DNA of 64,000 bases from a virus, in IMG/VR virus record IMGVR_UViG_3300012943_000031, positions 1 to 64,000 of that record; one strand, given 5' to 3'. Of the stretch, positions 7,689-52,023 are shown piece after piece (position 1 is the first letter of the stretch; each line of letters opens with the position of its first letter). The translations under genes and the position numbers were made by a program. A model generated the notes under the pieces. The model made no database searches. It was not told the DNA's origin and saw nothing but the letters and a program-made list of their open reading frames with translations.

Positions 7689-9054
7689 GGTTCCTCCTTT
7701 GTGGTTTAAATTGTTTAATCATTTGTTTCCAATTTCCCTCATTGAGAGTCCCCCTATCCTGCCATTCCAGAGCTTTACCCATTAATGAACCCATTTCTCT
7801 ACCTTGTGTATAACCAATTTCCATTAGTTTTTCACCAGTAACTATTGGCTCCATAGCGTTGGATTCCAATAATTCTTTAGCTCTGTGTTGTCCAATGTCT
7901 GGGGTATATTTAGCCAATGGAGGACGACCAGACAGGTCACACCTGCATACTTCAACCAGTTGTTCATAAGTTAAATTTTTTGCCATTAGTTTGCGTAATG
8001 TTCTCCTAATCACCTTTTCTGACACACCAGTACGAATCATATGCAATTCAACCATAGTTTCTATTTGTCTGATAGTTTTCTTATCAGCAAAATGAATACG
8101 GGTTAACATAGCACGTGTTGGTTTCCATCCTTCAGTCTCGTGACCAATAGACTTTATAGGTAAATCTTTGTTATAGAATACTCCTTTAGTTAAGGGATAA
8201 TCTCCTATAGTTGTAGTTGATACTTTACCTAAATCGTGACAAATCATACATATACGTGTAAACCAATCTTTTGCTTCATCTAGTGTATACATAGTATGCA
8301 TAAACACATCACCTTCTGGATGGTGTAATGGTGATTGTGGTACACCAATGCAATCATGTAGTTCCTTGAAATGATGTGGTAACCATCCAACCTGACGTAA
8401 GAACATAAAGAACACTGATGGCATTTCAGCAGTCTTGAGCATCTTATTTAACTCCATACCTACTCTCTCAGCAGATATATCGGTGGGTTCCATGCTCTTA
8501 CACATGGTAAACAACTCCACTGACGGTTGAAACTCAGGAAAACGTGCCAAGAAACGTGCTGCTCTATATACACGTAAAGAATCCTCCTTAAATGCTATAG
8601 ATGTGGGAGTAAGAAAACTATGTGCAATATGATCTCTTCCCATATATGGATCAACATACTCACCATGAATAACTTCTTTAGCTATTGCATTGATTGTCAA
8701 ATCCCTACGTGCTAAATCCTGTTCAATAGTTACTCCTTCAGTAACTACATCAAAATCTTTACGTGTACCACCAACTAATGTTTCCTTTCTAGCCATAGCA
8801 AAGTCAACTTTTTGACCATCTATATCTGCAATCCATACAGGAAATTTCTGTCCTACTAGTGGAGTTACAGATTCACAGTGTTCAAGGAGTATATCCTCAA
8901 CCTGTCTTGGGTTGGTAACCCCGACCAGACATATATCTATGTCATCAGTCTCGATTCCCATCAATTCATCTCTGACACATCCACCTACATAGTAGGATTT
9001 AATATGATGTTGAGACAAAATCTGGGCTATTTGTTTCAGTTTCTTCTCCAACAT
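7675..9054 (-). CDS. cca: Class II tRNA nucleotidyltransferase (CCA-adding enzyme) with HD domain
   Basis: YYVGGCVRD...DDIDI, ARKE, DLARRDLTINAIA, EDSLRVYRAARF, ISAERV, HHPEGDVFMHT and HDLGK motifs. Confidence 0.93.
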   Translation of the reverse strand: MLEKKLKQIAQILSQHHIKSYYVGGCVRDELMGIETDDIDICLVGVTNPRQVEDILLEHCESVTPLVGQKFPVWIADIDGQKVDFAMARKETLVGGTRKDFDVVTEGVTIEQDLARRDLTINAIAKEVIHGEYVDPYMGRDHIAHSFLTPTSIAFKEDSLRVYRAARFLARFPEFQPSVELFTMCKSMEPTDISAERVGMELNKMLKTAEMPSVFFMFLRQVGWLPHHFKELHDCIGVPQSPLHHPEGDVFMHTMYTLDEAKDWFTRICMICHDLGKVSTTTIGDYPLTKGVFYNKDLPIKSIGHETEGWKPTRAMLTRIHFADKKTIRQIETMVELHMIRTGVSEKVIRRTLRKLMAKNLTYEQLVEVCRCDLSGRPPLAKYTPDIGQHRAKELLESNAMEPIVTGEKLMEIGYTQGREMGSLMGKALEWQDRGTLNEGNWKQMIKQFKPQRRNHETT

Positions 9055-9253
9055 AGTCAATAATTTTATGGAGTTCAGTAACAGCTATTAACTTAACTGC
9101 TCTATCACCCGTTTGTTTTTCAATTTCCTGAATAATTTCCTTGACACTATGAAGATTCTTGAAAGACTCACCAAATGATATAGATTTCAAACCTCTCTCA
9201 CTGGTAATAACATGAGCTTCATATGTGTAAGCAACGAGATATAGTTCTTTCAT
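8999..9253 (-). CDS. Hypothetical protein
   Basis: ORF track; A-rich leader before the ATG. Confidence 0.55.
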   Translation of the reverse strand: MKELYLVAYTYEAHVITSERGLKSISFGESFKNLHSVKEIIQEIEKQTGDRAVKLIAVTELHKIIDYVGEETETNSPDFVSTSY

Positions 9254-9297
9254 TTTACTTTATTTAAAAAAAGGGAGGGTTTCCCCTCCCCATTAGG

Positions 9298-9630
9298 TTA
9301 AACGATTCTTCGGAAGTAATACTTCAAAACACATGTTTTGATGCCACCTGTGGGATACTTTTCACATGTAACTACTTCACTGTCAACAACATACTCAGAA
9401 CGGTCAGCCAATTCAATATTGGTGATTTGAGTGAAGAAACCTGCCAACACTGCATTGGCATTGTGTTTTAGTGTCTCACTATCATTTTCACCTTTGATGG
9501 TTAATAACTGTTCTTCTATATCAGTATCAATAGTAGTTTTTAAGGTCGGTGTAAAATGGGATAACTCTTTTATTACTGTCCCATCTTCGTTGTAGTTCAT
9601 TGTGACGATCCCTATCTCTAAAGTGTTCAT
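9298..9630 (-). CDS. Hypothetical protein
   Basis: ORF track; followed by a terminator-like hairpin at 9266-9290. Confidence 0.6.
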   Translation of the reverse strand: MNTLEIGIVTMNYNEDGTVIKELSHFTPTLKTTIDTDIEEQLLTIKGENDSETLKHNANAVLAGFFTQITNIELADRSEYVVDSEVVTCEKYPTGGIKTCVLKYYFRRIV

Positions 9631-9639
9631 TATAACGGA

Positions 9640-10575
9640 TTAATTTTGTGTGAAATAATATGGCCTCCCATTCTCATATACCAATTGTAAACCTCTTTCA
9701 ACAGCCTGTTTCCTGTGAACAGTCTCATACTGTCCATTTTCATCAACAAATAATGCTGAATGCCAAGGTGATGTCCATGCTTTTTCTGATGGAATTAATT
9801 GGAATGAGTATTTTTTGCCATTATTGATAGTTGGGTGCATGGAAATACGGATAGAATTTTGAAATTCATTATTGACCATATTGCTGTATGCTTCATTTCT
9901 GAACATCATTTCTCTTGCAACCCTTTTTGCCTCCTTATGTAACTGATTAGTAGAGGAATATGGACGTATTGCTAAATCCACCTCCATAAACTTAATCATA
10001 CCACGATATAACATATTAGTATCAACATCGTTTAATATACGATCTTGTAATACATTACCATTGATACCAAAGTTATTAAGGATTTTGTTTCGAACACCAC
10101 GCATACATATCCTTTTTGGATAGAAATCTGTAGCGTTGTAGAAAGTAATATCAATACCTTTAACCAAATCTCTCATAACTTCCTCATAACCAGCAACTGT
10201 TAAATCACTGATAGAGAGAACATCTGAGAATACATAGCCATCACTGACTATGTTGATATTGACACCGGGTGGATATACATCTCTTACTTGTCTGGCAAAA
10301 TTATCAAAATTATCAATAGATACTTTTTCACCCAAGTCGGGTAACCTGCCAATAACTTTGTCTCTTTCGTTAGGTGACTTCATTGGATAACCCAACATAA
10401 CAAAGTCTATAACTTGTTGTTTATCAATGAATTCAACAAGTCTTTGGCGCAGAATATCTCTACCTACAATAGCATACTGATCTACATTAGGTAGCTCAGG
10501 CATTCTAAATCCCTGAAATATATCAAGAATTCTATCTGCAACCTGAGTCGATGTTAATACAAGTAACTCTTGCAT
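9640..10575 (-). CDS. Isonitrile (isocyanide) synthase, PvcA/IsnA/Dit1 family
   Basis: FVMLGYPMKSPN..KVIGRLPDLGE, VYPPG.NINIVSDGYVFSD, RNEAYS, IRISMHP and TSPWHS follow the Dit1/PvcA motif order. Confidence 0.85.
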   Translation of the reverse strand: MQELLVLTSTQVADRILDIFQGFRMPELPNVDQYAIVGRDILRQRLVEFIDKQQVIDFVMLGYPMKSPNERDKVIGRLPDLGEKVSIDNFDNFARQVRDVYPPGVNINIVSDGYVFSDVLSISDLTVAGYEEVMRDLVKGIDITFYNATDFYPKRICMRGVRNKILNNFGINGNVLQDRILNDVDTNMLYRGMIKFMEVDLAIRPYSSTNQLHKEAKRVAREMMFRNEAYSNMVNNEFQNSIRISMHPTINNGKKYSFQLIPSEKAWTSPWHSALFVDENGQYETVHRKQAVERGLQLVYENGRPYYFTQN

Positions 10576-10592
10576 ATAGGTGTGTTTAAAGG

Positions 10593-11618
10593 TTATTGTA
10601 ATACTGTTGCTTCAGGCCAGTGTACTTCATCATCATGTACACTGATACCATGAAATTCAAGGAATGCTTGTTTAGCTTTATCCTTTAACTTCAGTAATGT
10701 CAACCCCATCTGAGGTTCATAACAATCCAATAACTTCACACCATCCGGGGCATGTATTGCTTTATCCTGTGGACGTAATCCATGCTCTTTCAGAACGGGA
10801 TGACCTGTGATGACAATATAATGGTCACCATATTCAGGTACATTTTCACTTCTTACTAAAGCAACATCACCAATACGTAGATACATACCTTCCTGTGCAG
10901 TAATACGTTGTACATCATCCACAGTCATTTGATAGGAATTATCAAAATACTCTACACTGAAGGTATTATCTCTACCATCACGTGTATGTTCTGATAGGTA
11001 ATGCAGTGATGCAGAATATCCTATAGATGTAAAATTGTGGATTAATGTTTGCCTTTTAAATGATTCATTTTTAGGACGTTGGTAAAGGGAGGCAAACATA
11101 CCCTCTCCAACAATAATAGTTTCAACAGGTCGTACTACGGCCTTATCTTTGTGTATCATCCGGTATGTGTTGACACGCATTTTACCGAATAATATTTCTT
11201 CATGAATATACCCTATAGCATGTCCATGAACAGGGGATGTATGTCCATCACCCCAACGTGCCATAACTAATTCAACACCCTCCTTGTAAAGAGGTTTGTC
11301 TTCGTTTTTGAGTAGGACAGGAGCTTCCAGTGCTAAAATAGTTCTGTTAAAACCATTCTTACCCGGTGGCATATCTTTAGCCACCCAAGGAGCTATCCTT
11401 AATTTTCCTGCCAGTTTGGTCATAATTGATTTAGTTAGTTCGACCTTTTCTAACAGTAGGGGATCATCATTTCTCAGATGTGGCATTTCATCAAAGAAGT
11501 TTTCATACCCATGTTTGTACATCCTTCTTTCGTAGGGCTGACCATCATACATGATCTTAAGGATGTCTTCTTCTGGTGTGTTGGAGCTAACCAACGTTTT
11601 CATCATTAGTGTTTCCAT
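10593..11618 (-). CDS. Cupin, cysteine dioxygenase-like domain plus an unknown C-terminal domain
   Basis: ELVMARWGDGHTSPVHGH...ILFGKM...Y...LIH...ASLHY resembles the CDO WxPGxxSxxHxH...H...SLHxY pattern. Confidence 0.7.
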   Translation of the reverse strand: METLMMKTLVSSNTPEEDILKIMYDGQPYERRMYKHGYENFFDEMPHLRNDDPLLLEKVELTKSIMTKLAGKLRIAPWVAKDMPPGKNGFNRTILALEAPVLLKNEDKPLYKEGVELVMARWGDGHTSPVHGHAIGYIHEEILFGKMRVNTYRMIHKDKAVVRPVETIIVGEGMFASLYQRPKNESFKRQTLIHNFTSIGYSASLHYLSEHTRDGRDNTFSVEYFDNSYQMTVDDVQRITAQEGMYLRIGDVALVRSENVPEYGDHYIVITGHPVLKEHGLRPQDKAIHAPDGVKLLDCYEPQMGLTLLKLKDKAKQAFLEFHGISVHDDEVHWPEATVLQ

Positions 11619-12532: not shown

Positions 12533-12546
12533 AATAATGTTTTTAG

Positions 12547-12620
12547 ACTTCACGACAGGATTCGAACCTGTGAACACTTGGTTTGCTGCCAAGGTGTTTG
12601 GGCCACTCACACACATGAAG
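12547..12620 (-). tRNA. tRNA-Cys(GCA), atypical A33
   Basis: Acceptor CTTCATG/CGTGAAG, U73, anticodon arm CTTGG-CAGCAAA-CCAAG, T-arm ACAGG-TTCGAAT-CCTGT. Confidence 0.8.
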
Positions 12621-12772
12621 GTATGTCAGGGAGAGAACTTCCATTTTAATGTCCTCCTTAGTCCTGACAAATAAGATTAAACCCCTATAGAAATAGGGGT
12701 CGGTATTAAGGGACTATTCCAATGAAGAAATGACTACGGTGATATAGTAGATTTAGTTAATCTACCTTGTGT

Positions 12773-13782: not shown

Positions 13783-14070
13783 TTATAGTACACTCTCAGT
13801 CAAATAATCATCGATTACTTCTATTGGTGGTTCTTGTGGGAACGGCAATGGACATACTCTATTATTTATTAGACTATGGAGTGTTATTTCTTCTTCAATT
13901 ACCTGTTTTGCGTGGGCTTCACAAGGTATAAAACCACCACCTGATGTTGCAGCAATATATGCTTGTTCAGGGGATTTTCTACCACCATTACTCTGTATCT
14001 CCTCATATGAAGCAATACAACATGAGGGATACCCAAAGTACTTGCCCAATTCTTCTGTCATGTTCATCAT
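13783..14070 (-). CDS. Hypothetical protein (GKYFGYPxCC motif)
   Basis: GKYFGYPSCCI...GFIPCEAH...RVCPLPFP, a motif type common in phage small proteins. Confidence 0.65.
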   Translation of the reverse strand: MMNMTEELGKYFGYPSCCIASYEEIQSNGGRKSPEQAYIAATSGGGFIPCEAHAKQVIEEEITLHSLINNRVCPLPFPQEPPIEVIDDYLTESVL

Positions 14071-51934: not shown

Positions 51935-52006
51935 GGTACTGTAGTTTAATGGCAAAACAGCAGTCTCTAAAACTGAATAGTGTGGGTTCGATCCCCATCA
52001 GTACCA
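51935..52006 (+). tRNA. Amber suppressor tRNA (CTA anticodon)
   Basis: Acceptor GGTACTG/CAGTACC, A73, CAGT-CTCTAAA-ACTG, GTGGG-TTCGATC-CCCAT. Confidence 0.88.
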
Positions 52007-52023
52007 CAATTAAACCAAATACA

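Follow-up and report, generated by a model that had tools for sequence, protein, structure and literature searches.

Isonitrile synthases of the DIT1_PvcA family (PF05141) condense an amino acid with ribulose-5-phosphate to form an alpha-isocyano acid, and isonitriles bind copper and haem iron strongly. In the IsnA/IsnB, PvcA/PvcB and AmbI1-3 pathways, which lead to vinyl isonitriles (rhabduscin, paerucumarin and hapalindole precursors), the synthase is encoded in a compact operon together with a non-haem iron oxygenase of the TauD family. The fungal isocyanide synthase clusters combine the DIT1_PvcA domain with more varied partners, fusions included (Dit1/Dit2, the ICS-TauD fusion XanB and the ICS-NRPS-like CrmA); there the domain is accompanied by a P450, a TauD enzyme or NRPS-like modules, and none of these partners is a thiol-dioxygenase cupin or resembles the additional domain described below. 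Work on CrmA is said to indicate that a DIT1_PvcA domain can accept non-aromatic amino acids. To our knowledge, small-molecule biosynthesis encoded by phages is rare, and full-text searches of the literature turned up nothing published on a phage isonitrile synthase, on a synthase-cupin pair, or on crAss together with DIT1 or PvcA.

The phage locus described here has the synthase family in common with the IsnA/IsnB-type pathways, all invariant residues being present, and likewise joins the synthase to a putative non-haem iron enzyme in a compact operon. However, its synthase falls into a separate clade, its carrier is a phage, and the partner is predicted to be a 3-His cupin with a thiol-dioxygenase fold, i.e., of a 2-oxoglutarate-independent type, instead of a TauD-family enzyme. 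Moreover, the phage version has two more obligatory components, a C-terminal domain attached to the cupin (C-domain) and a 110-aa protein; neither is present in the four canonical bacterial genomes that were checked. This arrangement is real and conserved. On balance, we favour the reading that it is a mobile, phage-borne, three-gene biosynthetic cassette, whose most likely product in the infected cell is an isonitrile built from an amino acid, or a derivative of such an isonitrile.

The gene unit and its phage carrier

The window, i.e., the whole stretch of 64,000 nucleotides of viral DNA that was analysed, belongs to an IMG/VR record of 106,836 bp, which is estimated to be 72% complete. The phage setting claimed by the first-pass annotation is confirmed by this record, by terminase, portal and major head protein genes at 31.9-40 kb, and by 28 tRNA genes (ARAGORN). 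Among 50,697 GenBank phages, the nearest relatives of the terminase are those of crAss-like phages of Bacteroides and Flavobacterium, and this kinship at about 25% identity identifies the carrier as a distant, soil-type crAss-like phage. Neither the synthase nor the 341-aa protein that carries the cupin has a match in the 50,697 GenBank phage records by tblastn, and megablast of the cassette region gave no match in GenBank phage records either. The synthase and the small protein occur as identical copies on a record from a 132,658-bp contig, so that a longer assembly of the phage than the 106,836-bp record probably exists. One of the 28 tRNAs, at window positions 51935-52007 on the plus strand, has the anticodon CTA (labelled tRNA-Pyl by ARAGORN; amber-suppressor type). 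TAG reassignment is known for some crAss-like phages, and this tRNA could reflect such a reassignment in part of the phage genome.

The cassette lies in a leftward block, opposite to the structural genes. Both reading frames that the first-pass annotation had paired are found on the minus strand, at 10593-11618 for the cupin and C-domain protein (341 aa; the alternative start at 11603 in the public gene call gives 336 aa) and at 9640-10575 for the synthase (311 aa). The unit is not limited to two genes, as had been proposed, but comprises three genes and four domains: the synthase is followed by the small conserved protein of 110 aa (9298-9630, minus strand), whose gene starts 9 nt after the synthase stop, and a strong intrinsic terminator (9272-9291, minus strand; 8-bp stem with six G-C pairs, GAAA loop, T7 run) begins 6 nt past the stop of the small gene. 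The order is thus cupin and C-domain protein, IsnA-type synthase, 110-aa protein, terminator. A scan for sigma-70 promoters stayed at background (26 found, 27.9 expected); with a crAss-like phage, such a scan carries no information. About 1 kb upstream of the cassette, a lone tRNA-Cys (12546-12620, minus strand) is located in the leftward block, just downstream of a terminator-like hairpin (12680-12701, minus strand), and an ORF of 95 aa at 13783-14070 (minus strand) matches DUF483 barely above the cut-off (26.1 against 25 bits).

Two neighbours were considered as functional partners and rejected. The CCA-adding enzyme encoded downstream is separated from the cassette by the strong terminator, and it is not conserved in other loci. 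A general link to a Ter-type module was suggested by TerC, which occurs near one cassette in a Deltaproteobacteria-binned contig and about 6 kb away in the window, but the five other carrier phages lack both TerC and TerD.

The synthase homologue and its cupin partner

The 311-aa protein is an isonitrile-synthase homologue of the DIT1_PvcA/IsnA family, as judged from Pfam, PDB sequences and invariant residues. In agreement with its first description, it matches PF05141 over practically the full length of the profile (positions 3-272 of 273), with an E-value of 5.9e-69 and a score (233 bits) far above the cut-off of 26.4, and it matches the solved isonitrile synthases 9dh4 (2.8e-38) and PvcA 3e59 (2e-33). 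In an alignment of phage-type relatives with four canonical bacterial homologues, all 21 of the 21 family-wide invariant residues are kept (P64, K66, S67, K73, V74, G76, D80, E83, G104, D112, G113, F116, Y130, F196, A229, R243, S245, H247, K255, W271 and H272); the four canonical homologues used for this alignment and for the tree were taken from a sample of 401 Pseudomonadota genomes. Against NF045653, the NCBIfam equivalog for the PvcA L-tyrosine isonitrile synthase, the protein scores 137.7 bits, below the cut-off of 600, and by sequence comparison it is a member of the family and not an orthologue of PvcA. A quick maximum-likelihood tree, with only four outgroup sequences, places the phage-type synthases in a clade apart from the canonical TauD-linked IsnAs (SH-aLRT 98). 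Given the separate clade and the score of 137.7 against 600 bits, the substrate and even the outcome of the reaction may differ.

A synthase clade set so far apart from the canonical IsnAs, and so far under the PvcA equivalog score, might release no isonitrile but another product, such as an N-formyl or cyclised (e.g., thiazoline-type) amino-acid derivative, with the cupin supplying or consuming a sulfur-containing substrate. Such an outcome has a precedent in the same family, as yeast Dit1 yields N-formyltyrosine (PMC7345447), and it would also suit a thiol-dioxygenase-like partner with an invariant arginine (R92, see below). However, the retention of all family-wide invariant residues argues that the core chemistry is probably the same, and the enzyme may still produce an isonitrile, even one that is hydrated or cyclised afterwards. 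We regard this alternative as unlikely; an isonitrile-forming synthase is the reading that is followed below.

The usual partner of such a synthase is absent. In three of the four canonical bacterial loci a TauD gene lies directly downstream of the synthase gene, whereas, in line with the earlier statement that no TauD-type partner accompanies the phage synthase, PF02668 has no match in six carrier phage records, namely the 106.8-kb record of the window and five others, two of the six being complete. The place of the partner is taken by the 341-aa protein, which has no match in Pfam, NCBIfam, PHROG or PDB sequences and belongs to a small family (193 clusters at 50% identity among 1.84 billion representatives). 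An AlphaFold2 model based on an alignment of 38 homologues (pLDDT 93.8) predicts a thiol-dioxygenase-type cupin (residues about 35-224; 10947-11516, minus strand) with an additional C-terminal domain, much as the first-pass annotation had described it: a CDO-like cupin, putatively 3-His, with an extra domain. The assignment of the cupin rests on the model together with Foldseek and VIA-align. With VIA-align, thiol dioxygenases take all of the first seven places among 48,161 chains (B. subtilis CDO, 3-mercaptopropionate dioxygenase, mercaptosuccinate dioxygenase, rat CDO, ADO, ergothioneine dioxygenase and PCO4; Z 10.2-12.5, rmsd 3.2-3.8 over 140-162 residues), whereas generic cupins reach Z 9.0 at most. 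The best Foldseek matches are B. subtilis CDO 4qm9 (2e-7), MDO, PCO and ADO, and the best 20 matches of the cupin family profile among PDB sequences are all CDO type 1, with E-values of 0.006-0.05.

At the level of residues the likeness to CDO is partial. The profile alignment to CDO type 1 places WGDGHTSPVHGH opposite WGEGHGSSIHDH, so that the invariant H131 and H133 (HxH) stand opposite H86 and H88 of CDO, and a third invariant histidine, H194, occupies the cupin motif-2 position. Across the family alignment, R92, H131, H133, E140, H194 and H206 are invariant, as is the loop EHTRDGRDN (210-218). R92, upstream of the metal motif, presumably sits at the position of CDO R60, which binds the substrate carboxylate; two bacterial CDO homologues show Y-x-R-N upstream of HxH, the same pattern as in the cupin around R92. 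However, the CDO_I profile (PF05995) scores 12.7 bits on the 341-aa protein, below the gathering score of 23 (E 0.004, HxH region only), and hhalign of the cupin family against the two bacterial CDO homologues gives a probability of 12.9%. The column opposite Cys93 of CDO contains Ile or Leu and no Cys. The S-L-H206 stretch is retained; two positions further on, however, stands Leu, and the adjoining Y207 varies between Y, F and L across the family; neither the Cys93-Tyr157 cofactor nor the Ser-His-Tyr triad of CDO was found intact in the family alignment. With CDO_I below its threshold, no Cys93 equivalent and no conservation at the Tyr157 position, thiol dioxygenation is not assured, and on the strength of the model the N-terminal domain is best called a thiol-dioxygenase-like cupin and not a demonstrable CDO. 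The invariant EHTRDGRDN loop, the fused extra domain and the constant location beside an isonitrile synthase set the phage cupin apart from the thiol dioxygenases. A CDO-related cupin in natural-product biosynthesis has been described in SbzM, the cupin sulfonamide synthase of the altemicidin pathway (PDB 9ug7); its structural match to the phage cupin (Z 7.5) is much weaker than those of true thiol dioxygenases, and its pathway has no isonitrile synthase.

Conserved partners and spread of the cassette

The C-terminal domain, an alpha/beta domain of about 110-115 residues (residues about 225-341; 10596-10946, minus strand), reaches a pLDDT of 93.4 when folded in isolation. Its closest fold relatives are not convincing (best E 0.19 in the PDB by Foldseek, best Z 3.2 in a wide VIA-align search, best E 0.05 in BFVD), which does not by itself prove a new fold; the ESM Atlas gave no usable lead for this domain or for the small protein. 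Some proteins of 105-167 aa are stand-alone versions of the domain, and in three others (P0231, P0265 and P0263) it forms a natural fusion with DIT1_PvcA, at the N-terminus of the latter. Judged from sequence, these fusions tie the domain to the synthase in the Rosetta-stone sense. Because it occurs alone and fused to the synthase, the C-domain is the constant partner of the synthase, and the cupin the optional one. A search with a positive control did not find the domain in the four canonical bacterial genomes. Three metagenome loci (L041, L042 and L045) contain two C-domains: one is fused with the cupin, and the other stands alone directly before the synthase.

The co-occurrence of these parts was surveyed in several collections. 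Scans of viral and genome collections with single-sequence queries found nothing, while alignment-based queries gave loci. Twenty-six metagenome loci were scanned with our own HMMs of the four cassette parts and evaluated where the flanking DNA sufficed: the small protein comes after the synthase in 23 of 23 evaluable loci and the C-domain before it in 16 of 16, and 13 of 14 have the cupin domain. DIT1_PvcA adjoins the cupin in all seven loci found through the cupin family, and three more viral loci, found via the synthase, show the equal order of C-domain, synthase and small protein. For 34 of the best 120 cupin homologues, the longest contig is exactly equal in size to that of one of the best 120 synthase homologues. 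The linkage of the pair in other genomes, which the first-pass annotation had made a test of its proposal, is thus found in the seven cupin-family loci and in the metagenome loci. As a statement about partners, the pairing holds in part: cupin and synthase are linked in most loci, but the cassettes L004 and L017/L029 have a C-domain and no cupin, and the invariable partners are the C-domain and the 110-aa protein.

Some loci deviate from this order or add to it. The complete 95.6-kb phage L002 has two extra genes inside the cassette (L002:7083-7610 and 8536-9279), which encode a 175-aa protein without a match and a 247-aa protein with a weak methyltransferase hint (E 0.009); neither has a PDB match. 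In a Deltaproteobacteria MAG contig (L006:968-7026) the synthase precedes the cupin, and ahead of the pair stand genes for an argininosuccinate-synthase-like PP-loop enzyme, a VTT-domain protein and TerC. In two Candidatus Peribacteria MAG contigs (L007/L008), a very divergent DIT1_PvcA-like protein of 430-440 aa is followed by a protein of 338-340 aa with the C-domain behind an uncharacterised N-terminal domain, and then by a stand-alone cupin domain; in L008 a YdjC-like protein follows.

The 110-aa protein gave no lead in Pfam, PHROG, PADLOC or the Atlas, and no cassette protein has a match in PADLOC. In L002, L003, L004, L005, L017, L018 and L021, a homologue of the small protein comes immediately after the synthase. 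This constant co-occurrence bears on the possibility that the cassette acts on a macromolecule and not on a free amino acid. The target might be the amine of a protein N-terminus or side chain, possibly in the 110-aa protein itself, or an amine of a nucleic acid or an aminoacyl-tRNA, with the C-domain as recognition module and the cupin acting like PCO or ADO. Indeed, PCO and ADO, which oxidise protein N-terminal cysteine, are among the best structural matches of the cupin, and the investment in tRNAs nearby is heavy, with 28 tRNAs and the CCA-adding enzyme; the latter, however, is encoded beyond the terminator and is not linked to the cassette elsewhere. The only likeness of the C-domain, a faint one, is to small beta-barrel binding modules (WYL, Tudor, RimP and Sm), but with Z scores of 3.2 or less it is at noise level. 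The small protein, although always co-encoded, has no invariant Cys or Lys across its homologues, and free amino acids are the substrates of all characterised DIT1_PvcA enzymes. A macromolecular target seems decidedly improbable to us, and a cassette that makes a small molecule remains the preferred reading.

Between phages, the cassette proteins are 45-52% identical, whereas the terminases of the carriers are 25-28% identical to that of the window or not detectable, a pattern that points to a selected, transferable module. The genes flanking the cassette are not common to the loci. The genes might instead be passengers, recently taken from a host and without a selected function in the phage; in favour of this, four loci sit in bins labelled as bacterial MAGs (Neisseriaceae, Deltaproteobacteria and two Peribacteria). 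However, these are the only loci obtained when 185,579 prokaryote species were scanned with one genome each, and at least the Neisseriaceae-binned contig carries phage-type genes and looks like a phage. Moreover, many phage contigs that are only distantly related show the same order, each of the proteins has dozens of invariant residues, and the canonical bacterial form has a different partner. Passenger status is accordingly very improbable, and the spread of the locus is better described as that of a phage-borne cassette.

Proposed chemistry and role in infection

The combination of an isonitrile-synthase homologue with a thiol-dioxygenase-like cupin, a C-domain and a small protein, without the usual oxygenase, suggests that these phages probably make a reactive small molecule during infection. 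As to substrate, product, order of steps, complex formation and biological role, we infer the following course. The synthase would condense the alpha-amine of an amino acid with ribulose-5-phosphate to an alpha-isocyano acid, as in characterised IsnA/PvcA. The C-domain would work together with the synthase. As it occurs by itself and in fusions with either the synthase or the cupin, docking of the C-domain on the synthase is probable, and the same complex probably includes the small protein. Where present, the cupin, presumably a 3-His mononuclear-iron enzyme, could provide an O2-dependent tailoring step in place of the Fe/2-oxoglutarate enzymes IsnB/PvcB. This step might be the oxidative decarboxylation of the isocyano acid or, in the manner of the thiol-dioxygenase relatives, the S-oxygenation of a cysteine-type substrate. 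The product could poison or chelate metal centres of host or competitor proteins; by analogy with the known behaviour of isonitriles, metal chelation or enzyme poisoning is a plausible role.

A more far-reaching version of this proposal is possible, though we hold it to be rather doubtful. The phages would then spread a new isonitrile route, in which the synthase is active only in complex with an unfamiliar adaptor domain and the small protein, and in which the cupin performs a reaction not known for its fold. It might decarboxylate an isocyano acid oxidatively without 2-oxoglutarate, or turn cysteine into an isonitrile that bears a sulfinate. With the product, the phage would disable metalloproteins of the host or of competitors, or a host defence, during infection.

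The proteins of the cassette are small, give confident fold predictions and lend themselves to expression, which makes the question directly testable. If the favoured reading is true, isonitrile enzymology would gain three parts: a cupin in the place of IsnB, a new synthase-linked domain and a small partner protein. For the phages, a conserved and horizontally spread isonitrile cassette would then point to a chemical weapon or a takeover tool in infection.
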